The notes beneath the pieces were generated by a model that worked only from the letters and a program-made list of their open reading frames with translations, did not search any database and had not been told where the DNA came from. From IMG/VR virus record IMGVR_UViG_3300036799_000108, positions 2,543-66,542 of that record: DNA of 64,000 bases. One strand, 5' to 3'. Positions 1 to 64,000 of this stretch are shown in pieces. The DNA is from a virus. Position numbers and translations under genes: made by a program. Position 1 is the first letter of the stretch. Each line of letters begins with the position of its first letter.

Positions 1-3
1 GAT

Positions 4-408
4 ATGCATAAGATCGTCATCACGGACCCGGTGCGGCTTCGAGCCGCCATCGAGTTTGCGCAGGATCAGGGATGCCTCGAACAGTTTGGCGCTGATCTGT
101 GCCATCTGCTGCAAGTGCTGACCGCCGACATGATCCGCTATCCCGAGAGGGGTGGCGAGATCACTGCGGCCGTGGGTAGTTACACCGCCGAGATCCATGC
201 CGACTGGGCGCCATACTCGTTCGGCTTCGCTATCTGGAACATGACGGGGGAAAGCGAGAAAAGCCGGTCGAACCTCGTGCTGCATGGCGGTTGGATTTAT
301 TCCGGCCCTGACGTGCCGAGCGACGGCAGCTTCGCTTCGCTGACGGTCAATCTGCCAGATGTCATGGGGCAGTCGCGGCCAACGCACACATGGCGGTGTC
401 ACACGTAA
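4..408 (+). CDS. DUF4120-like protein (ICE/plasmid-associated family)
   Basis: Motifs DWAPYSFGF, GGWIYSGP and C-terminal WRCHT resemble the family pattern DFAPYSF..GGL.YHG..WSIHT. Confidence 0.6.
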   Translation: MHKIVITDPVRLRAAIEFAQDQGCLEQFGADLCHLLQVLTADMIRYPERGGEITAAVGSYTAEIHADWAPYSFGFAIWNMTGESEKSRSNLVLHGGWIYSGPDVPSDGSFASLTVNLPDVMGQSRPTHTWRCHT

Positions 409-671
409 TGGCCAAGCCACTGACGATCACAGGCTTGGCGCCAGTTCGCAGGACGGCGCCGGGTCTGTCTCGACATGAGCAGATCGTCCTCGAGGTTGTC
501 TGCCGGTTTCCGAACCGGCGGGCGATCACCGATCGGATCGATGGCGAACGGCAGATGACGCGGGCGGATTGGAGTGCTGCCCGCGCGTCGCTGATCGGCA
601 AACGGCTTTTGAACGCGGCGGGCGAGATCACCCTCGCCGGTCGCGTGATCGTGGGAGACACCACATGCTGA
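408..671 (+). CDS. Hypothetical protein, possible winged-helix
   Basis: TAATG overlap with the upstream stop; ends SLIGKRLLNAAGEITLAG. Confidence 0.6.
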   Translation: MAKPLTITGLAPVRRTAPGLSRHEQIVLEVVCRFPNRRAITDRIDGERQMTRADWSAARASLIGKRLLNAAGEITLAGRVIVGDTTC

Positions 672-1057
672 AACCGGGCGCACTCGAACTCGGGCTGGCA
701 CAGTTCACCGGCACCGAGCAATGGACCCGTCATGCTTTGGCATCGAACATGCTGATGACAGACGGCGTCCTGTATCTACGTGAGAATGCGGATTGCTACT
801 GGCTGGTCGATGCCATCGCATCCTACGTCGCCCACTCCCCCGAGCTGAAAGGGGAGCACTTCCAGGCATGGACGTTTGAGCGCGTTCATGAGGTGACGAA
901 ACCGCACCTGCTCTACGTCACGGACGGCAACGGCGACAAGCGGCTTATCACGCAGGAGATCGACTACAGCGACTTCCCGTTGCCGAAGATCACGCTCTGG
1001 GCGGTCTACGACGGAGGCTTCAAAGCCTTCGTCTTAATGCTGCCGAGCGAATACTAG
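665..1057 (+). CDS. DUF6876-like protein
   Basis: LAQFTGTEQW..TDGVLYL...YWLVDAIAS and C-terminal MLPSEY; ATG at 665. Confidence 0.75.
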   Translation: MLKPGALELGLAQFTGTEQWTRHALASNMLMTDGVLYLRENADCYWLVDAIASYVAHSPELKGEHFQAWTFERVHEVTKPHLLYVTDGNGDKRLITQEIDYSDFPLPKITLWAVYDGGFKAFVLMLPSEY

Positions 1058-1121
1058 AGAGGAGCTGACGACCAGCAGCGCAATCCCGCGCCGCTGTCTC
1101 CAACCCTGGAGTGCTATCGAC

Positions 1122-1541
1122 ATGAGACGGAAAGGTACGCTGACGAACGTCCAAACCGGGCGTCCGTTCTCGGTGACCGTTCATCACAGCGACGACGGCT
1201 GGCAGGCCAAAGCCATCCGTGCAACCGCGGGCACGCGCTTCGGCATGATGCTGCTGTCCGCGTTGGGCCTCGAGCCAGACCACCCTCCGAGCTGCGGCAG
1301 GCCGTGTGTGACGTCGGACGGCTTCCTGATCGGCCACTACGTCGGCCGTGATGGCGAAAGCCACATGGGCGCGATGCTGGGCGATGTGTCCGACCTGGAG
1401 GCCAACATCATGGGCTTCCCGAAGCACATCCACATGACGCCGGCGGAGAGGAAGGACTTCTACGCCATGTGGCGCAAGTGGATCGCGGATGACTGTCGCT
1501 CGCCACCCGGTCTGCGGCTAGACGATGGGAGGACGCGATGA
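1122..1541 (+). CDS. Hypothetical protein
   Basis: ORF track; ATGA-coupled to the next gene. Confidence 0.7.
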   Translation: MRRKGTLTNVQTGRPFSVTVHHSDDGWQAKAIRATAGTRFGMMLLSALGLEPDHPPSCGRPCVTSDGFLIGHYVGRDGESHMGAMLGDVSDLEANIMGFPKHIHMTPAERKDFYAMWRKWIADDCRSPPGLRLDDGRTR

Positions 1542-1900
1542 AGCGCACCCTCATCATCACCATCGAGACAACCGGCGAGGACACCTACCGCACGATGGAG
1601 GCCGCCGAGGAGGCGGTGCTGGATAACTGCGACGCCATCGCCAACAGCTATCAGGGCTGCTCAGTGAACGCCGAGATCTGCGTTGAGGCTATGGCGGACG
1701 CGCTGATCTCCGAGCTTTGCAACACAGGCAATGGGAGGACAATCCAAGACGCCCTCGAGCGCGCATGGTCGCATGTTCACCGATCCCTGGAGATTGCTGA
1801 AGGGGACGAGGACCCGCCCGAGGACATTGATGGTATGCGCTCTGACCTGGAGGCAATCGAGACGGCACAGAAACTCCTCATCGAGGAGCAAACGCCATGA
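1538..1900 (+). CDS. Acidic hypothetical protein
   Basis: ATGA overlaps at both ends; GGGAGG RBS. Confidence 0.75.
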   Translation: MKRTLIITIETTGEDTYRTMEAAEEAVLDNCDAIANSYQGCSVNAEICVEAMADALISELCNTGNGRTIQDALERAWSHVHRSLEIAEGDEDPPEDIDGMRSDLEAIETAQKLLIEEQTP

Positions 1901-2085
1901 GCGATGATTGGTGGCAATGCCGGTGTGGCTCTGGTCAATCCAAGCGCGCCCTCTACGACGCCAGGGGCATCTTCTGCACATACATCTGTGACGACTGCGA
2001 GCAGGAGAAGCGTAAGGAGTTCCGCGCCGAGATCTTCACGGACGGCAATTACGACCACGACGAGCCAATCGAGGAGGATGAGTGA
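1897..2085 (+). CDS. Small Cys-rich (Zn-binding) hypothetical protein
   Basis: CRCGSG...YDARGIFCTYICDDC; coupled overlaps. Confidence 0.75.
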   Translation: MSDDWWQCRCGSGQSKRALYDARGIFCTYICDDCEQEKRKEFRAEIFTDGNYDHDEPIEEDE

Positions 2086-2291
2086 TGGCCAGGAGAGACA
2101 TCGCCAAGGGCGTCGCTGACACGGACAGGAGGCTCCTGTTCCTGCGCAACGAGGTCACGAAGTTCCTTTGCGACAAGTTCAAGTTTGAGGACGTTGGGGG
2201 CGGCTTTGGTTTAGGCCAAGCCGATGTTGATCTGGAGACCCCGGACGGCTTCACCGTGAATGTGTCGATCTGCATTCTGGAGGACGAGTGA
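2085..2291 (+). CDS. Hypothetical protein
   Basis: TGATG overlap, GAGGAGG RBS. Confidence 0.65.
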   Translation: MARRDIAKGVADTDRRLLFLRNEVTKFLCDKFKFEDVGGGFGLGQADVDLETPDGFTVNVSICILEDE

Positions 2292-2461
2292 TGGACGATG
2301 ATGACGAACTGGTCGCCATGATCCCGATCACGGAGACGGAAGCGAAGGTGCTGTGGCAACTGCTGTTCAACGCCAGCAGCGACACAGTGGTCGAGCTGAC
2401 CGCAGACGTGGCCGAAAGCTTACTGGGTAAGCTTCGCCATGCACACTTCGAGGAACGCTGA
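2291..2461 (+). CDS. 56-aa hypothetical protein (below the ORF-track cutoff)
   Basis: Translated by hand: MDDDDELVAMIPITETEAKVLWQLL...HFEER; TGATG overlap upstream, next ATG at 2463. Confidence 0.6.
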   Translation: MDDDDELVAMIPITETEAKVLWQLLFNASSDTVVELTADVAESLLGKLRHAHFEER

Positions 2462-2462
2462 G

Positions 2463-2906
2463 ATGGCCACATGGCACCAGATGCAGGCGCGCAAGCGTCC
2501 TGGGTTCAAGCTCTACCACGAGACGATGTGGTCAGTGCTGTATGATCCGCCGAATGAGATGGCGAGCATCATGCTGTTCGCCACATACAGGGAAGCGCAG
2601 GCGTATCGCAGCAGGTTTTCGCCTGATCGCTCGGATCACACCATGATCCTGCGGCCGGCGAAGCTGATCTGGGTTGAAGTCGATGAAGCTCGCTATGACG
2701 AAATGCTCAACATCCTGCCGCCAGCGATCTGGATCGAATACGGCTTCATGGTGGGTGAGCCGTGGGACCACGGCCCCGACGGTCGGCCAAGGTTCCCGAC
2801 ATTCGTCAAGCTGCGCGGCCACTACTACGAGGCCACGCTGCCGATGACCGTCGGTGAGTTTAAGGCACTCGATCTAAGCACCGTCGGAAGGAAGGAGGAG
2901 CTATGA
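2463..2906 (+). CDS. DUF1419-like protein
   Basis: EVDEARYDEMLNILPP..W...GFMVGEP.DH motif. Confidence 0.7.
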   Translation: MATWHQMQARKRPGFKLYHETMWSVLYDPPNEMASIMLFATYREAQAYRSRFSPDRSDHTMILRPAKLIWVEVDEARYDEMLNILPPAIWIEYGFMVGEPWDHGPDGRPRFPTFVKLRGHYYEATLPMTVGEFKALDLSTVGRKEEL

Positions 2907-3205
2907 CAGAGCAGGAGCTTGGGCCCGAACCGTGCGTGCCGAACAATGGCATCTCGACCCTGAGTTGGAGGTATCGCGCTGCACTCGCTGCCTGGACGTT
3001 ATGGTGTGCGAAATGCGCTGTCCTTCGCTTCTCAGCACTGACGGACTCAGTCGAGATATGGGCCTTCCATGTCGCTGCCGAGGAGGTGCGCACCCAAGCC
3101 GGCGACGATGCAGCTACCGAGTTCTTCATGGCGGCCTTCCCGCCCAACTCTGAAGCGAGGGCAGCAGCAATGCGACCGCTCTCGCCAAGACACGAAGATC
3201 CCTGA
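2903..3205 (+). CDS. Hypothetical protein
   Basis: GGAGGAG RBS, ATGA overlap. Confidence 0.55.
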   Translation: MTEQELGPEPCVPNNGISTLSWRYRAALAAWTLWCAKCAVLRFSALTDSVEIWAFHVAAEEVRTQAGDDAATEFFMAAFPPNSEARAAAMRPLSPRHEDP

Positions 3206-3255
3206 CCCATACGCCGGGAGCCTGCATCACGCAGGCTCCTTGGTATGCGTCCAGG
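3201..3255. promoter_or_regulatory. Extended intergenic hairpin
   Basis: GGAGCCTGC(3217-25)/GCAGGCTCC(3231-39), with outer CATAC/GTATG and CCTG/CAGG pairings. Confidence 0.55.
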
Positions 3256-3306
3256 CGCAGAACGTTCGCCAATCCCGGTCGGACGTAGCTCACTTAGGAG
3301 CCTCTT

Positions 3307-4398
3307 ATGGCAACCCAAAAGCGCAAACGAGCGCAAGCACTGAATGCTGTCGTGCCTGCGAAGCAGCAGGCTAACGGCGGCGGCGATAAGCCTGAACCCA
3401 AGGTCGAACTGATGGCCATCCCTGCCGCTCTGTTGCTCGCGGCTGAGACCATCACGGCCAAGGCGCCGAAGGATCGGACTGACCTGCAAGGCGTCCTGCT
3501 GCACCAGAAAGACACTGGTGTCGCCAGGATCGTGGCGGCTGATGGCTTCCGCTACTTCATCGGTTCGTTCGAGGCAAAGCCTGCACCCTCGTGGCTCAAG
3601 GGCGGCATCATGGTGTCGCGTGAAGCCCTGAAGGCGCGCGTCAACATGCTGGTGAAGGTGGCAGAGACGCAGATCGTTGTGCTGGCCTACGCCAAGGGCG
3701 CAAGCACCCTGACCATGATGGACGTGGGCAGGACGATGGAGTTCAAAGTCCCGGCCGCGGAGGTGAAGGAGCTGCCCGACTACGAGCAGAACATCCAGGT
3801 CAAGACCTTCGCTGACATGAACGACGAAGCTGGCGGGATAGCAGCCCGCCCTGAGTGGGAGCCGGTCGGTTTCAACTCGCGACACATGAAGGATGTGGGC
3901 GACATCGCCAGGATCCTCGAGGGTGGCATGGACAAGCGGCTTCGCGAGAAGAACGGCATGACCATCCGGGTGTTCGACCAGGGCAACGTGAATGCGCCGC
4001 GCATCTTCGACTTCCAGGGCTGGGATGGCGCGATCCTGATTGTCGGCGCGATGGCTCTCCCAACGTCACAGTTGCCGCTGCTGACGGCCAAGGTGCTCGC
4101 GCCGGCGGTCAGAGGCACGGTGGCTGCGCTGAGAGCCCATGCCACGCGCTGGATCGATGCGGCGGCGGAAGCCACGACGGAAGACCAGAAGGTCGCCTGT
4201 CTCGCCAAGGCCGAGGACTTCCAGCGGCGCGTGGCGGCTGTCCTCGAACGGGCACCGGAGAAGACGGCGATCGCCGGCCCCATCGCGGGCACGGACAAGC
4301 TGGAAGCCCCGGATGAGCCACTGACAACGGGCGAGAAGTCGGCTGCGACGAAGCGGAAGCGTGCGGCCGCCAGGGCGGCGGCGGTGGTGCTGCACTGA
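3307..4398 (+). CDS. DNA polymerase III beta-clamp-like protein with C-terminal extension
   Basis: DRTDLQGVLL..RIVAADGFRY matches beta-clamp DVRYYLNG..TVATDGHRL; LPDYE and VGFNSRHM match FPDYR and IGFN; TTAGGAG RBS. Confidence 0.65.
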   Translation: MATQKRKRAQALNAVVPAKQQANGGGDKPEPKVELMAIPAALLLAAETITAKAPKDRTDLQGVLLHQKDTGVARIVAADGFRYFIGSFEAKPAPSWLKGGIMVSREALKARVNMLVKVAETQIVVLAYAKGASTLTMMDVGRTMEFKVPAAEVKELPDYEQNIQVKTFADMNDEAGGIAARPEWEPVGFNSRHMKDVGDIARILEGGMDKRLREKNGMTIRVFDQGNVNAPRIFDFQGWDGAILIVGAMALPTSQLPLLTAKVLAPAVRGTVAALRAHATRWIDAAAEATTEDQKVACLAKAEDFQRRVAAVLERAPEKTAIAGPIAGTDKLEAPDEPLTTGEKSAATKRKRAAARAAAVVLH

Positions 4399-4403
4399 GC
4401 GGA

Positions 4404-4447
4404 GCGGCCTGGCGTGGTCTGGGGAGTAGCCAGACCACGCCTGCCGC
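4404..4447. terminator. GC-rich hairpin with GGAGTAG loop (terminator or regulatory)
   Basis: Perfect 12-bp stem GGCGTGGTCTGG(4411-22)/CCAGACCACGCC(4430-41); no U-tract. Confidence 0.5.
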
Positions 4448-4532
4448 CAGCTTGCGCCAGCGCGTCACGGTGCAAAGCGCGACGGTCCTACACGGACAGT
4501 GCATTATAGGGCGTAAAGCCCGAGAGGGGACC

Positions 4533-5417
4533 ATGACCGTTATCGGAACGGGTATCTCGTGGACGAACAGCACCTGGGGCCTGGCGGTTGGCTGCCACAA
4601 GGTCTCGGACGGATGTAAAAACTGCTACGCCGAGGGACTGGTTAACCGTCTCAGCAGCTTCGGCCAGCGGTTCGATGAGGTGAAGCTGAAGCTCGATCGG
4701 CTTGATCACGTCAGGAAGTTTCGACCTATCGTCGGGCCTGACGGACTGTTACCGCACATGGTCTTCGTGAATTCCATGTCCGATTTCTGGCACGATGCGA
4801 TACCGGAAGAAGCCATCTCGCAGATCCTGGACGTGATGGAGGCTCATCCCTTCGTTGTGTTCCAGATCCTCACGAAACGCCCAATCCGGGCACGGCGCAT
4901 CCTGACCGCGCGCTACGGTGGCAAGGGCATACCGCGTCACATCTGGATCGGCGTCAGCACAGAGGACAACCGGGTCGCGAAGCGGCTCGACATCATGCGG
5001 ACGATCAAGGAGCGGTGCGGCGGCGGGACGTTCTTCGTGTCGGTGGAACCCATCATCGGACCAACGAACGAACTGGACTTTGCCGGGATGGATTGGGTGA
5101 TCACTGGCGGCGAGAGCGGTCCCGGTGCACGACGAATGGAACGGCAATGGCTGATAGATGCCGTCCACAGGTCGCAATGGCATCGCGCGGCGCTGTGGCA
5201 CAAGCAATCCGGCACAGTGCCGAGCCATCCCAACATCGACCGGGCGCCCACTCGGCTCAAGCCCGGCGACAGGTTCCGCTGGCTCCGCGACAACGGCTGG
5301 GAAGTGCTGCCGCACGAGAAAGGCGGCGCCACGATCGATCGGCAGACCTACCGCGAACTGCCTCGCGCCTACCACGAGATCAAGGAGGCGATGAACGCAA
5401 ACCTGTTAAGTGCCTAA
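4533..5417 (+). CDS. DUF5131 / phage Gp37Gp68 family three-Cys-motif protein
   Basis: ISWTNSTW..GCHKVSDGCKNCYAE (CX6CX2C), VFVNSMSDFWH, FQILTKRP, DWVITGGESG, KQ; ATG after GAGGGG. Confidence 0.92.
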   Translation: MTVIGTGISWTNSTWGLAVGCHKVSDGCKNCYAEGLVNRLSSFGQRFDEVKLKLDRLDHVRKFRPIVGPDGLLPHMVFVNSMSDFWHDAIPEEAISQILDVMEAHPFVVFQILTKRPIRARRILTARYGGKGIPRHIWIGVSTEDNRVAKRLDIMRTIKERCGGGTFFVSVEPIIGPTNELDFAGMDWVITGGESGPGARRMERQWLIDAVHRSQWHRAALWHKQSGTVPSHPNIDRAPTRLKPGDRFRWLRDNGWEVLPHEKGGATIDRQTYRELPRAYHEIKEAMNANLLSA

Positions 5418-5425
5418 TCGACTGA

Positions 5426-5440
5426 ATGTGCAAAGGAGTA
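5426..5440 (+). repeat. ATGTGCAAAGGAGTA RBS-containing repeat, copy 1
   Basis: Identical 15-mer at 6402-6416. Confidence 0.85.
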
Positions 5441-5447
5441 ACCGGAT

Positions 5448-5792
5448 ATGACTACGCCACGTTTGCTTATGGCCGCTGTGGCCATGAGCGTTGCCCTCAC
5501 GGCATGCGGGAGATCATCCTCGCAGTATCAGACAACAACCTACAGCCCGTCATTGCCACCACGACCGGCTGGATGCCCTGACGCGGCTTACGAGGAACAA
5601 CTGCTGCGCACGACCGGCCATCTGTGCCCCGAAACCGAGCGGCTGAACCAAGCGATACAGAGCAATCAGCAAGAGATCTACGACCTCGATGTCCAGCAGT
5701 ATGGCCGGAAGGCTGTCCTCGAGTGTCGTTCGCGCATGTCGTGGCGCGCGCCGACCTACCCCTACTGCCTCGAAGCTAACCGGGGGCGATGA
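5448..5792 (+). CDS. Predicted lipoprotein
   Basis: Signal peptide with lipobox VALTA-C. Confidence 0.75.
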   Translation: MTTPRLLMAAVAMSVALTACGRSSSQYQTTTYSPSLPPRPAGCPDAAYEEQLLRTTGHLCPETERLNQAIQSNQQEIYDLDVQQYGRKAVLECRSRMSWRAPTYPYCLEANRGR

Positions 5793-6055
5793 AAATGGCA
5801 GACGTCCCGGAATGGGAGCCGCGCGTGCGAGTGCTCGAGGAGATCGCGGCGGCAACCAAGGACGCACTTAATCGCATCGATGCGCGGTTCGAGCACCTGG
5901 ATGGCAAGATGACGGCCGGGTTCGATCGCCTGGACGGCAAGATCACACGCCTGGATGAGAAGCGCGAGCGAGACTTCCGAGTGCTGTTCGGCGCCATCAT
6001 CGTGACCACGATTGGACTGGCCGCCCTGATCGCCCGCACGCAACACTGGATCTGA
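5789..6055 (+). CDS. Coiled-coil protein with C-terminal TM helix (DUF1640/CCDC90-like)
   Basis: Heptads RFEHLDGKMTAGFDRLDGKI, then DFRVLFGAIIVTTIGLAALIA. Confidence 0.65.
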   Translation: MKMADVPEWEPRVRVLEEIAAATKDALNRIDARFEHLDGKMTAGFDRLDGKITRLDEKRERDFRVLFGAIIVTTIGLAALIARTQHWI

Positions 6056-6069
6056 CGAGGGAGTGACAG

Positions 6070-6372
6070 GTGGACGAAGAATTAGAACGCAGGTTCGACG
6101 CGATGATGCGTCGGATCAACGACAACCACGAGAGGTTGCTACTCAGATTGCGCGATAGGCAACCTGATGTGCGCTCAGTGTTGGACTGGGACTGTCTCCA
6201 CTTCGCTGCGAGGTGGAACGACGTCGCGCGCCAACAGGGATGGGACCATGCCCAGCAAGTGATGGCGCTGCTGTCCATCATCTGCGCGAGGACCGCGGAA
6301 GGGGACGAAAACCTCATGCTCCACGTGGTCGCGATAGGTGAGCTGATGACGCCCCCTGATCTGGGGGCTTAA
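6070..6372 (+). CDS. Hypothetical protein
   Basis: GAGGGAG RBS, GTG start. Confidence 0.55.
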   Translation: MDEELERRFDAMMRRINDNHERLLLRLRDRQPDVRSVLDWDCLHFAARWNDVARQQGWDHAQQVMALLSIICARTAEGDENLMLHVVAIGELMTPPDLGA

Positions 6373-6401
6373 AGCACGACCGCGCCGGGCGGTTTCCCGG
6401 T

Positions 6402-6416
6402 ATGTGCAAAGGAGTA
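6402..6416 (+). repeat. ATGTGCAAAGGAGTA RBS-containing repeat, copy 2
   Basis: Identical to 5426-5440. Confidence 0.85.
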
Positions 6417-6420
6417 GACG

Positions 6421-7194
6421 ATGAGAAAGACGACAAGACGGAAAGGGATCGGTGGTCCCTTCAAGGGACGCGCGCCCAAGGTCGTTGAGACCAAGGCGGT
6501 CGAGACGCCAGATGAGCCGCTGCCGGAGACCAAGGAAGCGGTGATCGAGGCAATGGCCAAGCTGTGCGACGAGGTTGACGTGCAGATGGCCGCTGAAGTC
6601 ACCGGCGAGAAGCGCATCGAGCGCAGCTTCAAGCGCTTCTGGCAGCAGACACAACCCTGGCGCGGCTACCACGACCGGCGCGACAAGCTGACCGACAGGC
6701 TCCGCGATCTGCTGGACGATGAGACCAATCTGGACGACTACCTCCGCAACCAGCTCGCAGACCAGAGGATCGTGCCGAGCTTCGCGCGGCCAAGCTTCTT
6801 CGTGATCTGGATCGACTTCATCCCGGTCGGCTGTTCGTGGGAAGGCTTCATCGCGCCCGATGCCAAGGTGTGGGCCATTGATCCCGACAGGCCGTGGATC
6901 AACCCGGAGGGTATGCGCTGGGTGGACGACCAGATCGGTGATCGGGACCTGAACGTCGAAGATGTGTTCAGGAACGAGATCACCGGCTGGACGACCCACC
7001 TCAGCTACGCGACGAGAGGCAAGAAGCCGGCTACGCCATCATTCCAGCCGGTCAGCTTGACGCCACAAGGCAGACAGCAGGCTGGAGCGATGCTTGAGGG
7101 GATGCCGTGGTTGCGGCCGATCCTGCAGCGTGGACCGGTTAATGCTATCCGCATGCCACCACACATCAAGTCAGTGCAGTTGGCGCTGGCCTGA
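6421..7194 (+). CDS. Hypothetical protein (possible remote plasmid leading-region family)
   Basis: Strong RBS; AIDPDRPWINPEGMR weakly recalls the AVD.DKPFLSETGYR motif of rhizobial plasmid proteins. Confidence 0.75.
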   Translation: MRKTTRRKGIGGPFKGRAPKVVETKAVETPDEPLPETKEAVIEAMAKLCDEVDVQMAAEVTGEKRIERSFKRFWQQTQPWRGYHDRRDKLTDRLRDLLDDETNLDDYLRNQLADQRIVPSFARPSFFVIWIDFIPVGCSWEGFIAPDAKVWAIDPDRPWINPEGMRWVDDQIGDRDLNVEDVFRNEITGWTTHLSYATRGKKPATPSFQPVSLTPQGRQQAGAMLEGMPWLRPILQRGPVNAIRMPPHIKSVQLALA

Positions 7195-7200
7195 TCGTTC

Positions 7201-7246
7201 CGCTGGACCTGTCTAAACCGACTTAGACAGGTCCAGCGTCTTTCTC
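7201..7246 (+). terminator. Intrinsic terminator
   Basis: Perfect 16-bp inverted repeat CGCTGGACCTGTCTAA/TTAGACAGGTCCAGCG followed by TCTTTCT. Confidence 0.8.
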
Positions 7247-7267
7247 GTGCAAGGAGTGAGCAAAACC

Positions 7268-7580
7268 ATGCGTAAGATCATCGAAGGCAAGACCTACAAT
7301 ACCGAGACCGCCGACTATGTGTGCGACGTATCCGGCCCCGATAAGGACCGGAGCCACTGGGGCTAACGACACTGGGCTTTACCGCTCTGCCAAGGGACAG
7401 TTCTTCATCTCCGGCCACGGCGGCCCGCGATCAACGTGGGGGGTATCGACGGGGCAAAATAGCTGGAGCGGCGGCGAGGGGCTCAGAGTGGTTGAGACTG
7501 ACGAGGCGCGCGCGATGTGCGAGCGGCACGCCAAGCCCGAGACTTACCGGAAGTTCTTTGGCGAGCCAGAGGAAGGCTGA
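7268..7580 (+). pseudogene. Frameshifted conserved phage hypothetical gene (MRKIIEGKTYNTETA...GLYRS..GQFFISGHGG)
   Basis: The ATG 7268 frame stops at TAA 7364; the +1 frame continues the family motif; one extra G in TGGGGC (7358-63). Confidence 0.7.
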
Positions 7581-7590
7581 CCTAGCGCGA

Positions 7591-8232
7591 CTACCCCTCG
7601 TCCTGCTTCGGCACCGTTTCGCCCAGCAGGACGAGGCCCATGTAGGTCACGCGCGATCCCTTATCGCCATCGGCCTGCCAGCGGCGTTCGATGCTGGCAT
7701 GCATGATCTCGCAGATCCGGCGCAATGCGCGCTCGATGATGTCGTTGCGCGCCGCACCCATGCCCGGCATGTGGTGTTTGATGCGCGCCAGCTTCGCCAG
7801 CGCCTTGCTGGTGCCGCCCATGTTCATCTTCAGCCCTGTGCCCTCGGTGATCACGAGGCCCATCCGATCGCCCGGGGCGAGTGGCCGCCGCACGGCGATG
7901 AGGTAGAGCTGTTCCCACGGGCTGCCCCAGTGATCGCAGTCGAAGATGGTGAACTGACTGAGATCGATCGCGCGCAGCACTCGTCGGTTGTCGGCAACGT
8001 AGGCTGCGCGATCATCGTGCGGATAGAACTGCTTGTCGCAGCCAATGTAGCCGGCGGCCTGGTGCCACACGGCACGATACATCGCGCCCTCACCCGCGAA
8101 GCAATCGAACACCCGAGCATTCTCGGCGCCGATCGCGCCCAGCACCATCTCGCGGATGCGGGCTTTCGCGTTCTCCGCGGCCTTGCTGTTATCGCGCTTG
8201 CCGTAGCGCAGGAGATCCTGGCTGATGTCCAC
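7591..8232 (-). CDS. SAM-dependent methyltransferase-like protein (TcmP-like partner of DUF5131)
   Basis: VFDCFAGEG (motif I), DNRRVL, FDCDHWGSPW. Confidence 0.7.
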   Translation of the reverse strand: MDISQDLLRYGKRDNSKAAENAKARIREMVLGAIGAENARVFDCFAGEGAMYRAVWHQAAGYIGCDKQFYPHDDRAAYVADNRRVLRAIDLSQFTIFDCDHWGSPWEQLYLIAVRRPLAPGDRMGLVITEGTGLKMNMGGTSKALAKLARIKHHMPGMGAARNDIIERALRRICEIMHASIERRWQADGDKGSRVTYMGLVLLGETVPKQDEG

Positions 8233-9829: not shown

Positions 9830-10007
9830 CGGCGACCTCCGTTGCCCGCCCAGCTACCCACACAATGCCCTCGCGATATTCGCCATTGCTCTGACGGACG
9901 AAGTATCGCGAACCCCAGTTTATGACCTCGGCTGGTGGGCTGAACGGCGGCACCATGACCTTGACCACGAACTCGCCGGTGCGCGTCAGCAACCTGGTTG
10001 GCGTCAT
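9819..10007 (-). CDS. Small hypothetical protein
   Basis: GGGAG RBS, overlaps with neighbours. Confidence 0.65.
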   Translation of the reverse strand: MTPTRLLTRTGEFVVKVMVPPFSPPAEVINWGSRYFVRQSNGEYREGIVWVAGRATEVADGA

Positions 10008-10882
10008 GCAGCACTCCCGTAGAAATGGTCAGCCAGCCGCGCCATGCCGCTGGAGATCAGCTCGGAGGCTGTGTGGGTGCCGACGCGCCACTGGTCGCTG
10101 TAGCCACGCACGGTGCCGCCCAGGCAGACCCACAGCACCGGAGGCCACCATTGCGCACCGAGGATCGCTGACGCCTCACGCACCTTGCGGCAGGCCCGGA
10201 TGTGCTGATCGGTGATCGGCTGGATCAGGAACCCGGAGACGGCGACGCTGCCCACTCGTCCGGCCCCGAGCGGCGGCGCGACCTGCTCGAGGTGGCGGCG
10301 CAGCTCGCCGGCGGCATCGACCTCCCGTGCACCGATGGATCCGGCGCGCTTGAGCACGTCGACCGGATCGACCCGGTAGGCCCGCCGCAGGCGGCGGTTC
10401 GGATTGCGCGGATCGACCGCCCGGTCGTCCACCTCAACGTCGAGATCGCGCAGCAGACGGCCGTGCTTGTCGCGGCTGGCTCGGCGCCGCAGACCAGGTC
10501 CGAGGTCGGCAACTGTCTTTTCCTCGACCCCCCTCGTGCGGGCGCTAGGACGAGGCTGGATGGCCTTGGGCGGTCCGGCCGCTGTCTGACACCGGGGAGG
10601 CGCCTCGATGGCACCCTGCCCTAGGCCGGGCGGCGGCGTGTGGCCGTAGCGCCAGGGATGGATCGTGGCATCCGCCGGAACCTGGCAGGCCGTCAGGCGG
10701 CCACAGTCGAGCCTGAAGCGGTCCGCCCTCGGGTCGCCGGCCGTCCGCAGCGTGACCACACCGAGGATCCGATAGACCGTCTTGCCGCTGGCCGACGCCA
10801 TCAGCTCGCCGGTCCGCGGCGGATCGCCGGTCAGGCGCCGGGCCCGGAGCGTTACGACGGTTCGGATGGTCGTGGATGCCAT
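10004..10882 (-). CDS. DUF6456-like protein, putative late-transcription (Q-like) regulator
   Basis: C-terminal DPVDVL....EVDAAGELR...VLWVCL...GMARLADHF; position after the replication genes. Confidence 0.55.
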   Translation of the reverse strand: MASTTIRTVVTLRARRLTGDPPRTGELMASASGKTVYRILGVVTLRTAGDPRADRFRLDCGRLTACQVPADATIHPWRYGHTPPPGLGQGAIEAPPRCQTAAGPPKAIQPRPSARTRGVEEKTVADLGPGLRRRASRDKHGRLLRDLDVEVDDRAVDPRNPNRRLRRAYRVDPVDVLKRAGSIGAREVDAAGELRRHLEQVAPPLGAGRVGSVAVSGFLIQPITDQHIRACRKVREASAILGAQWWPPVLWVCLGGTVRGYSDQWRVGTHTASELISSGMARLADHFYGSAA

Positions 10883-11058: not shown

Positions 11059-11249
11059 GGCCGCAGCGTCTCAGTGCCGACGCGCACGCACTCGACCAGC
11101 ACCATCGGTGGGTTGTGCAGCGACAGCACCTCGGCCCGCGCGTCGCGATGTCGCACGAAGTCGAGCACGCGGGCATACAAGAATTCCTGCTCGTCCCAGA
11201 TCAGCAGGGTCGCGAAGGTCGATGCTTCACCGCGAATGTCCTCGGTCAT
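11055..11249 (-). CDS. Hypothetical protein
   Basis: Coupled overlaps. Confidence 0.6.
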   Translation of the reverse strand: MTEDIRGEASTFATLLIWDEQEFLYARVLDFVRHRDARAEVLSLHNPPMVLVECVRVGTETLRP

Positions 11250-11512
11250 CTCTCATCCTCCGCGAGCGACGACAGCGGCGGCAGCGTCGATGTGCCTCGG
11301 TGCAATCGCTTCGCGGCTGGCTCGCGCGGCTCTGCTGGAGGGATCGGCGACGGCCTGTTGGGCAATCCGCAGTGTCGTCGCTGACGGCTGATCGTCTCCT
11401 CCGAGCAACCCAGACGCCGCCCCATCTCCTTGAGCGACAGCCCTTGCGCATCGAGATCGCGAAGCCGAGCCAGCTTGTCCGCTGGCCAATGTGAGCCAGG
11501 TTTTCCTGTCAT
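11246..11512 (-). CDS. GcrA-like HTH regulator (N-terminal domain only)
   Basis: W..DKLARLRDL.AQGLS.KEMGRRLG.S...I......GLPNRPSPI. Confidence 0.7.
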   Translation of the reverse strand: MTGKPGSHWPADKLARLRDLDAQGLSLKEMGRRLGCSEETISRQRRHCGLPNRPSPIPPAEPREPAAKRLHRGTSTLPPLSSLAEDER

Positions 11513-60467: not shown

Positions 60468-61748
60468 CTATGTCGCCGCGGGCGGCGTGACCTGACCCTG
60501 CTGCCGGGCGGGATCATTCGGTTGCGGTGTTGGTGGTTGCTGCCCGAGCATTTCGAGCGGCATGCGGCCCGCCGCCATGGTGAGCTGATCGCCGCCATCG
60601 AGCGGTCCATCGTTGTTCTTGGCGCGCATTTCGTTCGGGGTGTTGATCCCGGCGTCCACCAGCGTCTTCATCATGATGGCGCGCTTCTCGCTGTCGGTGC
60701 GCAGCAGACCGTCCACGTTGAATTCGGCGTAGTAGAGGATGCGTTGGGCCGGCGTGAGAATGGATCGCGTGATTTCCTGCTCGATCGCCCGCAGCCACGG
60801 CCGCAGCCCATAGGTCAGGAACCACAGGTTCATCTGTTCCAACCCGGTGCCCCAGGCCGTCGACTTGTCCATGTGCCCGACCATCACCGGGCTCACGCCG
60901 TACCAGCGGCAAATCTGCTCCACCGAGTAAGCCCGCGTCGCCAGCAGCTCCGCATCTTCGGGCTTCATCGTTATCTGATCGAGCGACCATCCGCCCTCGA
61001 CCAGCGGCACGCGACCGGCGTTGATCGAGCCGGTGAACTTCTCCATCCACGAGTCGTTGTAGCGTTCTCTTTGGACGTCGGTGAGGAAGTTCGGCGCCTT
61101 CATCACCAAGCTCGGCCGCATGGCGTTGCGGAAGAAGCTCGCCGCGGACTTCTCGGCCGCCATCGCGATGCCGAGCGTTTCCCTGGCCTGCGAGATCGGC
61201 GATAGGCCGACGATGCCGTCCAGCGAGAACCCCTTGATGTGCAGGATCTGGTCTTCGGTATAGTCCTGCCGGACGTTCATGTAGGCGTAGTGGTAGAGTA
61301 GCGAGCCGTCAGTCTGCCGCGTAATGGTTAGCCGGTTCGGCATCAGCGGCGTCAACGCGATCACCGTGCCATCGCCGCGCCGCTCGATCGCCGCGTAGGC
61401 ATTCCCCCAGAGCAGCAGGCACGCCACCATGGCGGTCCAGAACGTGGTGGCCGTCATGTCGGCGTTGGGCTGGTCGTGCAGCAGCGAGTAGAGCGGGATG
61501 TCGCGGACAGGCACGCCACGACCGTCTGGCAGCTTCTGGAAGACTTGCAGCGCCATGGTCGAGATCGTCGTCGAGATCAGCCGCACGCAGGCCCACACGG
61601 TCTCCACGCGCAGCGCACTCTCCACACTGACTATCTCGCCGGCATAGGTCTCGCCGCCGCCGAAATACTGGTAGAGCCGAGGGTCGGTCAGCCCGATGCC
61701 ACGGGCGATGGTCGAGACGGCTTTCAGGTAGAGCCACCATCTCCGCAT
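60468..61748 (-). CDS. HK97-family portal protein
   Basis: TVWACVRLIS, LLWGNAYA, GLSPI, ICRWYGVSP, TPNEMR. Confidence 0.96.
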   Translation of the reverse strand: MRRWWLYLKAVSTIARGIGLTDPRLYQYFGGGETYAGEIVSVESALRVETVWACVRLISTTISTMALQVFQKLPDGRGVPVRDIPLYSLLHDQPNADMTATTFWTAMVACLLLWGNAYAAIERRGDGTVIALTPLMPNRLTITRQTDGSLLYHYAYMNVRQDYTEDQILHIKGFSLDGIVGLSPISQARETLGIAMAAEKSAASFFRNAMRPSLVMKAPNFLTDVQRERYNDSWMEKFTGSINAGRVPLVEGGWSLDQITMKPEDAELLATRAYSVEQICRWYGVSPVMVGHMDKSTAWGTGLEQMNLWFLTYGLRPWLRAIEQEITRSILTPAQRILYYAEFNVDGLLRTDSEKRAIMMKTLVDAGINTPNEMRAKNNDGPLDGGDQLTMAAGRMPLEMLGQQPPTPQPNDPARQQGQVTPPAAT

Positions 61749-61767
61749 GGACGCCCTCGCAGTTCAG

Positions 61768-61836
61768 TCAGTTGTGGAGATGATGGCGAGCGAGAAACCA
61801 GATGGCCGCGAACATCAGAACCAGCAGCAGGTTCAC
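61768..61836 (-). CDS. 22-aa hydrophobic peptide MNLLLVLMFAAIWFLARHHLHN
   Basis: GTG start overlaps the terL stop (ATGTGA). Confidence 0.35.
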   Translation of the reverse strand: MNLLLVLMFAAIWFLARHHLHN

Positions 61837-63569
61837 ATCACCGGCCGCGCCAGGAAGCCCTCAAGCCCAGCCTGATCGTCGGCCATTGAGCTGCCGATCG
61901 CCATGATCATCGCGGTCGCACCGTCGATCCTTCCAATGCTGACCTTCTTCGTCGGCATCTGGTTCTCATTCTTGTCGGTCTGCACGCGCATGTTCAGCGC
62001 CATCCAGCGCAGCACCGGATTACCGCCGTGGTCGATCTTGTTCGCCAACAGCCACGCCAGTAGTTCCTTCGTCGGCGCGGTGTAGGACCGGATGCCCTGA
62101 ATGAACTCCTTCATCGTCATGCCGCTGTTTTGCAGGCTGACGGCAAGCTGGATCGCGTTCCACGGGTCGAAGGCAATGCTGGCAATGTCGAAGAGGCGAG
62201 CGTCCTCGAGGATCGCACGCTCAACCTCCGTGTGGTCGATGATGTTGCCCTGTGTCGGCTCGATCAGACCCTCATCGATCCAGCGCCGATACTGCACCTG
62301 ATCGCGATCCGACTTCTGATCGACGGTATCGGCAGGCATCCAGAACCGCGGAACCACCCGCCAACGGTCACCGTGTTCGAGCGGCGGGAACAGCTTCACC
62401 CAGGCCGAGAGGTCGATCTTGCTCGACAGGTCGAGGCCTGCGAAGCAGCGCCGGCCGTGCATCTCCGCAGGGTCGAACGGACCCAGCGAATTGGTATCCC
62501 ATAGCGGCCCGGTGATGAGCTGCGACGCAGAGGCCGTCCGCATGTTCAACCGCAGTCGCTTGAACTCAATCTGCTTCGCCGGATTGTTCTTCGCCGCCCG
62601 GCACTGCCGCGTCAGGTCATCGAGCTTGACGCTGACGCCGAGGTTCGGGTTCGCTTTGCCCCAGACGCTTGGGTCATCCCAGCGGTCCTCGGCATCGAGT
62701 GTGGCAATGAACACAAACCACTCGTCGTCAACGAAGTTGCCCGCCACCACGTTGGCCGCATAGGCATGCTCTTGCGCGTAGACGCTCTCAGGGTTGTCGT
62801 CGCCGGCGGTGGTGATGATCCAGAGCAACGGTTGTCGTCTCGACCCCATCGCCGTGTCCAGCACATCCAGCACGGCGCGGTTGCGGTGCTTGTGCAATTC
62901 GTCGATGACGATGCAGTGCGGGTTCAGGCCATCCAACGTGCGATCATCGGACGAGAGGGGTTGGAAACTGGATAGCGTGCGGTCAACCGCAAGCGAGGCG
63001 CGGTAGACCGAAACGATCTTCTGCAGGTCTTCCGACCTCATCACCATGCGACGGGCCTCGTCGAACACGATGCGCGCCTGATCTTTCTTGGTAGCCGCCG
63101 AATAGACGTCAGCACCCGGCTCGTCGTCAGCGACCAAGCACTTCAGCGCCACAGTGGCCGCGCTGGTCGACTTGCCGTTCTTCCTGGCGACTTCCTCGTA
63201 GACCACCCGGTAGCGCCGCAGCCCATCATTGCGCAGCCACCCGAAGGCGGACCCTCGAACGAAGCATTGCCACGGCGAAAGCTTCAGCCGCCGGCCCGCC
63301 CACTCGCCCTTGGAGTGGCGGCAATACTCAGCGAATTCGATGGCATACTTCGCGATGTCGGGGCGCCAGACGAAGCCCTTCTTCTTCGCCTGCTCCAGAT
63401 CGCGGAAGTGTCGCTCGCACGCCGAGCGGACCAAGGCGCCTACGACGACCTTCCCCTTCAGAACGTCCCACGCATAGGCGCTGACCGGATCAGTGGATGG
63501 CTTGCGGTCGGGGAGCGTTGGCGAGGTATGTTTCGAGGCTCTGGCGCGGGGCGTCTTTGGCGCGGCCAT
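61833..63569 (-). CDS. terL: Terminase large subunit (Terminase_1, HK97-like)
   Basis: EVARKNGKST, IDELH, ITTAG, AGLDLS, RIDG. Confidence 0.97.
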   Translation of the reverse strand: MAAPKTPRARASKHTSPTLPDRKPSTDPVSAYAWDVLKGKVVVGALVRSACERHFRDLEQAKKKGFVWRPDIAKYAIEFAEYCRHSKGEWAGRRLKLSPWQCFVRGSAFGWLRNDGLRRYRVVYEEVARKNGKSTSAATVALKCLVADDEPGADVYSAATKKDQARIVFDEARRMVMRSEDLQKIVSVYRASLAVDRTLSSFQPLSSDDRTLDGLNPHCIVIDELHKHRNRAVLDVLDTAMGSRRQPLLWIITTAGDDNPESVYAQEHAYAANVVAGNFVDDEWFVFIATLDAEDRWDDPSVWGKANPNLGVSVKLDDLTRQCRAAKNNPAKQIEFKRLRLNMRTASASQLITGPLWDTNSLGPFDPAEMHGRRCFAGLDLSSKIDLSAWVKLFPPLEHGDRWRVVPRFWMPADTVDQKSDRDQVQYRRWIDEGLIEPTQGNIIDHTEVERAILEDARLFDIASIAFDPWNAIQLAVSLQNSGMTMKEFIQGIRSYTAPTKELLAWLLANKIDHGGNPVLRWMALNMRVQTDKNENQMPTKKVSIGRIDGATAMIMAIGSSMADDQAGLEGFLARPVM

Positions 63570-64000
63570 CCGTGGCTCTCAGCGTTTCGCCGGTCGCTGG
63601 ACCACCAGCAAAGATCCGTGGCCGTGAAACCGGTGTGAAGCCAAGCTCGCTCGCGGCCTTGAGCATTGCGGCGCCCTGACGGCTGATGATGCCGATGAAC
63701 GGTGACGGCACCATCTGAGGCCCCTGGCGGAACAGCAGCCCTTTGAAGGAGCGACCAGATGCCGCCAGGGCGTTCTGCTCGCGCGTGGCCGCGCGGTGAA
63801 GACAGTGCGCGACGACCCAGGCTTCCAACGCGGATCCATCGATCCGCTTGAGCAGGCCGGGCGGCGAGTGACGCAAGGCATATTCCCAAACCTCGCGCTG
63901 CTCTGCGTTGAAGTGTTCCGGACAGTCGCTCGGATTATCCACAAGATCGCCATCGGGGATCGGCTCGGCAGAATTACGCGGCTCTTCCGAGCCATGCAGG
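63490..64000 (-). CDS. terS: Terminase small subunit, P27 family (5' end outside the window)
   Basis: W..L...D..ALE.W..A..SP..ASELGFTPVSR; frame is open to the window edge (LHGSEEPRN..). Confidence 0.9.
   Translation of the reverse strand, partial: LHGSEEPRNSAEPIPDGDLVDNPSDCPEHFNAEQREVWEYALRHSPPGLLKRIDGSALEAWVVAHCLHRAATREQNALAASGRSFKGLLFRQGPQMVPSPFIGIISRQGAAMLKAASELGFTPVSRPRIFAGGPATGETLRATDGRAKDAPRQSLETYLANAPRPQAIH

Follow-up and report, generated by a model that had tools for sequence, protein, structure and literature searches.

The early region of phage T7 consists of small, variable genes at one end of the genome that are transcribed inward by the host RNA polymerase, and it contains RNase III sites (R1.1 and its kin). 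In T4-type phages, variable (hyperplastic) regions are punctuated by promoter early stem-loops (PeSLs) (PMC4122927), and phage HK022 carries a single two-stem RNA of about 70 nt, put, per early promoter (PMC9378689). In the leading regions of plasmids, the hairpin of Frpo is formed by the template strand, with the -35 and -10 sequences inside it, and according to Samuel et al. nearly 10% of the leading-region families have phage-associated annotations (PMC11541004). In this study, we revisited a block of small genes at positions 4-7580 of a 64,000-nt stretch of DNA (the window), which corresponds to bases 2543-66542 of the 69,648-bp virus record IMGVR_UViG_3300036799_000108 (93% complete, from a soil metagenome), together with an RNA element that is repeated within this block. 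A preliminary description had taken the block for a captured plasmid or integrative and conjugative element (ICE) island, inserted in reverse. Taken as a whole, the data are probably best explained by a native, variable early region that enters the cell first and whose message is punctuated by RNase III. The layout is of a known kind, being that of the T7 early region and of PeSL-punctuated variable regions; new here are an uncatalogued three-stem element and such a layout in a cos-type alphaproteobacterial siphophage lineage.

The block is inherited and keeps a fixed place in the genome; its backbone is conserved, and accessory genes are swapped. Positions 4-7580 hold 17 plus-strand open reading frames (ORFs; i1 to i17), between the ORF at 4-408 and that at 6421-7194, 9 of 15 junctions are overlapping or abutting, and the run is convergent with a minus-strand operon at 7591 and opposite in direction to the late genes, much as in the preliminary description, which had counted about 16 small, mostly coupled genes. 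The extent given there was too short, however; the block does not start at position 4 but begins about 4 kb upstream, across the repeat ends of the contig, with extra plus-strand ORFs at genome (that is, record) positions 69083-69364 and 758-2538, and has a total length of about 11.5 kb. For comparison, we used two complete relatives of the record (G000), here called G001 and G006, and a set of related contigs (L-numbers). The block genes share order and orientation in nine independent related contigs. G006, whose terminase is 63% identical to that of the record, shares eleven block genes with it, unchanged in order, orientation and place and followed by the same minus-strand genes, and eight further independent contigs or contig groups have the same backbone with other accessory genes. 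The block is thus not absent from relatives but syntenic in G006, L034-L037, L039, L042, L043, L045 and L046, and the same convergent junction is reached in G006, L042, L045 and L046. The backbone comprises e3, e6, i1, i2, i3, i6, i11, i12 and i16. In G001 the layout is the same (repeat, plus-strand small genes, convergent operon) with genes that are almost wholly different.

Atypical composition of the block was sought and not found, GC content (62.2 vs 62.5%), GC at third codon positions (0.78 vs 0.78) and relative synonymous codon usage (r 0.94) being those of the core. Relaxases of the three Pfam families searched (PF03432, PF03389 and PF08751; oriT and other relaxase classes lay outside the search) were absent from G000, G001 and G006, and positions 1-8000 contain no promoter-like sites, the hairpins being without -35 and -10 sequences. 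The synteny and orientation in relatives, the core-like composition, the lack of these relaxases and the lack of -35 and -10 sequences in the hairpins all argue that this is not an inserted island, and the block is very probably the native terminal early region of the phage.

Both ends of the contig consist of an identical GC-rich simple repeat, and the record is therefore a circle opened inside an unresolved repeat. The contigs of six related phages, found via the terminase or i1, begin at one aligned point upstream of HNH-terS-terL, which corresponds to genome position 68,638 (window 66,096), and in four of the six a G4 run lies at exactly bases 17-20. Since independent assemblies break at one homologous base, this point is a probable cos-type terminus. 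With the cos end upstream of HNH-terS-terL and the late genes starting there, the block would lie at the opposite, last-packaged end and would be transcribed inward. Last-in-first-out ejection is a generally accepted rule, and because of this rule and the packaging polarity we consider it likely that the block enters first and is expressed immediately. A candidate extended -10 sequence, called by eye, lies at genome 702-712 and is unique in the genome.

The preliminary description pointed to three strong hairpins (3201-55, 4404-47 and 7201-38), and these hold up well, with z scores of -3.3, -4.1 and -5.2 and none of 200 shuffles as good. The hairpin at 3201-3255 belongs to a repeated element, of which there are four full copies, at genome 1309, 1889 and 2245 and at window 3202; the hairpins at 4411-4441 and 7201-7238 are outside this family, and G006 has hairpins of other sequence at the same two places (after i11 and after i16). 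Twenty distinct copies of the element were collected across nine phages. A DNA pattern for the element retrieved seven metagenome stretches, all of them early block of this lineage, and a profile search over 439 kb found it in early blocks only and not in late regions, plasmid loci or G001; there was no credible match in Rfam. In L020, L035, L037, L042 and L045 the element stands ahead of the i11 homologue, as it does in the window.

Reading from the 5' side, the element consists of a long stem (P1), a second stem (P2), a GA linker and a third stem (P3), which are followed by a ribosome site and a start codon. P1 often begins at the upstream stop codon and its 3' foot holds an invariant UAUGC, and P3 has a conserved loop of six bases with the start codon about 35 nt downstream. 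P2 and the foot of P1 are mutually exclusive. P2 is paired at four positions with a G-C/A-U swap (15/5) in all 20 copies, compensatory changes are seen at each of the five consensus pairs of P3, and of 22 copies nearly all have a 3' piece that folds as P2-GA-P3. In the full copy at 3202-3286 (plus strand), which belongs to a class with an internal loop, P1 spans 3202-3255, P2 3246-3259 and P3, beyond the GA linker, 3262-3286, and the predicted cut discussed below falls before 3244. What looks by eye like a partial copy, the P3 hairpin only, with an AAUCCC loop as in other P3s, precedes i4 at 1073-1096 (plus strand).

The conserved G.U pairs of the element lie on the mRNA strand, and neither promoter hexamers nor a sigma-70 consensus were found in or beside the elements, a search that may miss alphaproteobacterial promoters. 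The element is therefore unlike Frpo, and the single-stranded DNA promoters proposed earlier for these hairpins were not borne out. Readings of the element as a hammerhead, a hepatitis delta virus-like ribozyme or an attC site were also considered and set aside, as judged by eye from core motifs and their order.

The core consensus for RNase III has been given as CWUNNN^NAWG (PMC4357697). In the fully paired copies, the 3' arm of P1 agrees in most cases with five to six of the six consensus positions and the 5' arm mostly with five to six, and the register gives 2-nt 3' overhangs with a G-C pair between the cuts (PMC6212723). The predicted 3' cut falls directly before UAUGC. As a criterion for a site, the helix around the cut should have about 11 bp or more, and 10-16 contiguous pairs lie above the predicted cut in 17 of the 20 copies, the stems of the other three being interrupted. 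The internal-loop copies agree at four to five of the six core positions and may be likened to T7 R1.1, which is cut once. On these grounds we lean towards the element being a putative RNase III processing site.

The following sequence of events can be envisaged. The terminase would cut the cos site upstream of HNH-terS-terL and package towards the late genes, which would make the block the last part to be packaged and probably the first to enter. The block would then be transcribed inward from the end by host RNA polymerase, as a long message in which host RNase III would cut P1 just 5' of UAUGC. Such a cut would free the 3' arm, allowing it to refold into P2-GA-P3 some 35 nt upstream of the start codon that follows, and the refolded leader may protect the new 5' end and set the expression of each gene group separately; a role of the released P2-GA-P3 as a 5' stabiliser or as a binding site is plausible. 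The repeated elements may in addition serve as recombination joints for the swapping of genes, and the small proteins would most likely act in host take-over and counter-defence, with some of them coming from the conjugative-plasmid pool.

Several points weigh against this picture. The register for RNase III was recognized only post hoc, the arms of the stem are not independent of each other, and half of the match in the 3' arm is the motif that was used to collect the copies. Sites with six of six positions occur at 0.12% of positions, and the chance over the registers of one stem is therefore a few percent. The distal box of Escherichia coli (AG at -12/-11) is unmatched, though distal box sequences may differ across phyla (PMC1540722). 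The evidence for the terminus consists of contig ends and not of read-end pile-ups, and the last-in-first-out order has been challenged for lambda (PMC10287942). The extended -10 sequence, besides being a by-eye call, recurs in one relative only (L043) and was missed by the consensus promoter scan. Lastly, the block genes gave no match to named anti-defence families in Pfam, PHROGs, NCBIfam or PADLOC, none of these four libraries naming an Ard, Acr, Dar, Psi, single-stranded DNA-binding (SSB), methylase or toxin-antitoxin protein in the block, although such proteins often escape profiles.

A different role for the element within the same native early region has also to be weighed. P2-GA-P3 could bind RNA polymerase or a phage protein, as a put- or nut-like antiterminator or as a translational operator, with P1 as the competing off-fold. 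The invariant GA and flanking bases and the conserved loop of R-A-Y-Y type represent more constraint than a cut site needs, the P1 foot and P2 exclude each other, HK022 put is likewise a two-stem early-region RNA (PMC9378689), and there are terminator-like hairpins inside the block. However, put occurs once per early promoter whereas there are up to four copies of the element, every one of them some 35 nt ahead of a start codon, an uncut P1 would sequester P2 in the nascent RNA, and the element lacks an Rfam match. A put- or nut-like or operator role for the element is in our view doubtful, and this account of the locus, with P1 as its off-fold, is unlikely.

It is still less probable that the block is a dispensable, moron-like accessory region, expressed in a carrier or plasmid-prophage state, in which the hairpins act as plain terminators and decay barriers. 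A repressor-like helix-turn-helix (HTH) gene is present, a tyrosine integrase was not found in the record, the hairpin at 7201-7238 is terminator-like and one gene is frameshifted, all of which would fit. Yet the nine-gene backbone is retained in relatives down to 27-50% identity, the copies of the repeated element lack a U-tract and in every case lead into the start of a gene, and the block is terminal and faces inward.

That the block is a plasmid or ICE leading region, captured en bloc, inserted in reverse and expressed from single-stranded DNA hairpin promoters, is highly improbable, for although DUF6876 is found in 89 plasmids and in none of the cultured-phage records, an Acetobacter conjugative plasmid has it among helicase, ParB, zincin-like metallopeptidase and TOPRIM genes, and relatives of the phage carry DUF3768 (in 497 plasmids, 253 of them conjugative), only 1 of the 17 genes is clearly shared with plasmids, plasmid matches are absent for i11 and i16 and limited to a single weak one for each of i9 and i17, no block gene besides DUF6876 matches the four plasmid loci that were fetched, the nearest homologues of DUF6876 are found in gene runs of phages, and to the synteny, the uniform composition, the lack of the three relaxase families and the hairpins without -35 and -10 sequences is added that the wobble pairs lie on the non-template strand.

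A real but slight overlap exists with the gene pool of plasmids. The preliminary description named DUF4120-, DUF6876- and DUF1419-like families as typical of conjugative elements; DUF6876, the one true plasmid-shared family in the block, was confirmed (i3, E 1.5e-35), while the DUF4120 match of i1 (15.6 bits vs a cut-off of 27, E 0.019) and the DUF1419 match of i9 (18 bits over 25 residues vs a cut-off of 23, E 0.003) fall below their cut-offs. Among the papers searched, none names DUF6876, DUF1419 or DUF4120, and the link to conjugative elements can therefore not be cited as established. The metallopeptidase near DUF6876 in the Acetobacter plasmid looks ArdC-like by eye, and the contexts of DUF6876 in other plasmids differ from this one. 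G001 has a full-length match to DarA_C (E 3.9e-5) at 24.5 bits vs a cut-off of 27, and DarA has been tied to counter-restriction (PMC5512222). Together with DUF3768, this weak match in a relative indicates that the gene pool overlaps with that of plasmids, and sharing gene by gene is to be expected from the proportion of phage-associated leading-region families noted above. What remains of the early host-takeover island proposed earlier is a probably early, variable host-interaction region that draws some genes from the plasmid pool, and not a captured island. From its position and from precedent, it is plausible that the block encodes at least one counter-defence protein. A small-gene run with DUF6876 and the Cys-rich gene described below is also seen in L030, a 102-kb contig of a more distant phage with similar tail-fibre genes, where it converges on the tail genes and is without the RNA element.

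Searches of the individual genes recovered DUF6876, DUF5131 and a beta-clamp-like protein, and structure searches with i3 and i16 listed no known anti-defence fold, an absence that does not rule out such a fold; sequence searches of the PDB were blank. All of the following genes are on the plus strand. The lineage-specific i1 (4-408, 134 aa) has homologues with 48-79% identity in L020, L034-L039 and L041-L043, and gave nothing above 0.76 in the Atlas. It is followed by i2 (408-671, 87 aa), with a weak HTH match, and by the DUF6876 gene i3 (665-1057); in L036 (3443-4345), L037, L041 and L043 an ATP-dependent DNA ligase gene lies between these two. The model of i3 (predicted local distance difference test score 94) has a single match in the fold search, the VIA match to 2R41 from Enterococcus faecalis (function unknown; Z 8.8, root-mean-square deviation 3.1, 96 aligned), which we take to be a DUF960 protein. 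The 139-aa product of i4 (1122-1541) is 76-81% identical in L034 and L042, and the acidic i5 (1538-1900, 120 aa) has a partial homologue in L041. With four conserved Cys residues in the alignment, i6 (1897-2085, 62 aa, acidic tail) is a probable Zn finger protein found in most relatives. Then come i7 (68 aa) and i8 (56 aa) at 2085-2461, of which i8 has homologues in L020 and L042, and i9 (147 aa; 66% in L045) and i10 (100 aa; 58% in L037 and L041) at 2463-3205.

Behind the full RNA element lies i11 (3307-4398, 363 aa), a phage beta-clamp-like protein (phrog_3007, E 5e-8; Atlas features score 0.90, with PF02767 on 45, 17 and 65% of the members of the top clusters), and past its stop codon, at 4411-4441, there is a 12-bp hairpin. 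The next gene, i12 (4533-5417), encodes a protein of the common phage family DUF5131 (Gp37/Gp68-type, radical-SAM-like; Pfam E 2e-56, phrog_2045 E 2e-59, weak TIGR04471); the PADLOC candidate-system matches at 1e-57, whose member is not named in the output, are most likely this protein. At 5448-6372 follow i13, with a lipoprotein-like signal by eye, i14, with a coiled coil and a C-terminal hydrophobic helix (phrog_20262), and i15. The 257-aa product of i16 (6421-7194) belongs to a family of 76 clusters without a Pfam or PHROG match, and a fold search with it produced no clear hit, either in pdb_via_wide (best Z 5.6) or in BFVD. A perfect 16-bp hairpin with a T-rich tail at 7201-7238 is terminator-like. 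Finally, i17 (7268-7580), whose C-terminal part matches a Caudoviricetes record (E 1e-9), is split near 7355-7362, where a short run of G carries a one-base frame change; the same change is present in the contig of the likely source run, and a decayed gene and a programmed slip are both candidates.

The first gene of the convergent operon (7591-8232, minus strand) marks the conserved inner boundary of the block and is 67-87% identical at the equivalent junction in L020, L042, L045 and L046; profile searches of it gave no match. This methylase-like gene and the DUF5131 gene are at most about 3 kb apart in G006, L042 and L045, and the two are possibly a split functional pair. The operon had been called Q-like; the gene in question, at 10004-10882, has no match in Pfam or NCBIfam. 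A small HTH gene at 11246-11512 (minus strand) looks GcrA-like by eye, and its only NCBIfam match is a weak one to a sigma-70 region. At the other end of the window, 60468-64000 (minus strand) holds the genes for the portal, large terminase and small terminase, with HNH and the probable cos end just past the window; the large terminase (61833-63569, minus strand) was assigned by motifs and position. The portal is of HK97 type (TIGR01537, E 9e-85) and the distal tail protein belongs to the Rcc01695 family (TIGR02217, E 2e-58; both NCBIfam), and the latter suggests an alphaproteobacterial host. These uncultured soil siphophages form one family, whose hosts are probably Alphaproteobacteria. No match came from pattern scans, either of IMG/VR (with i11, i16 and the internal-loop class of RNA element) or of GTDB genomes (with the element and i1), and thus neither a prophage nor a host was found.

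Some further observations concern the region around the probable cos end. Two GC-rich simple repeat tracts in opposite orientation, at genome 68,880-68,980 and at 69,420-69,648 plus 1-150, flank a single 93-aa ORF between this end and the early block. In G001, G006 and L040, too, the break lies at this place and in a GC-rich repeat, though one of different sequence, so that the presence of a repeat tract here is conserved. A Cys-rich 243-aa gene that adjoins HNH beyond the window (window coordinates 64626-65357, minus strand) is found inside the early block in three relatives (L019:6328-6930, L035:8762-9313 and L042:7385-7996), and for the HTH gene beside cos the early block of G001 contains two homologues; genes thus move between the two sides. 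GANTC (CcrM-type) avoidance was considered as a sign of first entry and rejected as too weak and inconsistent across relatives. There is one site in 9.4 kb of the block vs 51 in 58.5 kb (p 0.004, uncorrected, for one of 32 patterns), a count that leaves out four more sites in the terminal 1.8 kb, and the gap, with one site in about 14.6 kb, extends from window -2080 to 12596 and takes in the block as well as the distal end of the convergent operon. Among the relatives with both parts, the effect is seen in G006 (p 0.012) and is absent in the other two of three (G001, 0.70; L042, 0.64). Six-base palindromes are somewhat fewer in the block in three of four genomes.

Our results correct the origin of the block from a captured island to a native early region. 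They define by position a fast-swapping set of small genes, which makes it a sensible place to screen for counter-defence functions in phages of soil Alphaproteobacteria. The element predicts one RNase III-dependent 5' end just before UAUGC; if this is true, T7-style punctuation of the message would extend to a cos-type siphophage, with a refolding leader added. More tentatively, the element may represent a new class of RNA switch, in which refolding triggered by RNase III yields a P2-GA-P3 leader that binds a protein or the polymerase and times the early gene groups, and the cos-proximal block may be the phage counterpart of the plasmid leading region, with at least one new anti-restriction or anti-defence family (DUF6876, i1, i6 or i16) shared with conjugative plasmids.

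Of the systems considered, the T7 early region shares with this locus the small, variable, terminal genes, inward transcription by the host polymerase (inferred here) and stems that agree with the RNase III core and are either paired throughout or, like R1.1, interrupted by an internal loop. Unlike T7, however, the present phage is an HK97-type, probably cos-ended siphophage in which a phage RNA polymerase was not seen and an Ocr-like gene was not recognized, and its element has an invariant refolding P2-GA-P3 leader and does not match the E. coli distal box. With HK022 put (PMC9378689) the element has in common two adjacent stems, a very short purine linker and a location in the early region, but it occurs in multiple copies before gene starts, its stems are much shorter and a long upstream stem overlaps them. 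The leading-region islands of plasmids (PMC11541004) are similar in being probably first-entering DNA dense in small unknown genes and in sharing DUF6876 and, in relatives, DUF3768 and a weak DarA_C match. In the phage, by contrast, delivery is as double-stranded DNA from a virion, there is no Frpo-type promoter, no relaxase of the three families and no named anti-defence, SSB or toxin-antitoxin gene, and the region is an inherited one. The T4-type PeSLs (PMC4122927) likewise are repeated intergenic stem-loops in a variable region with different genes behind them in each relative, although in the PeSL an early promoter is fused to the stem-loop, whereas the element described here carries no promoter hexamers.

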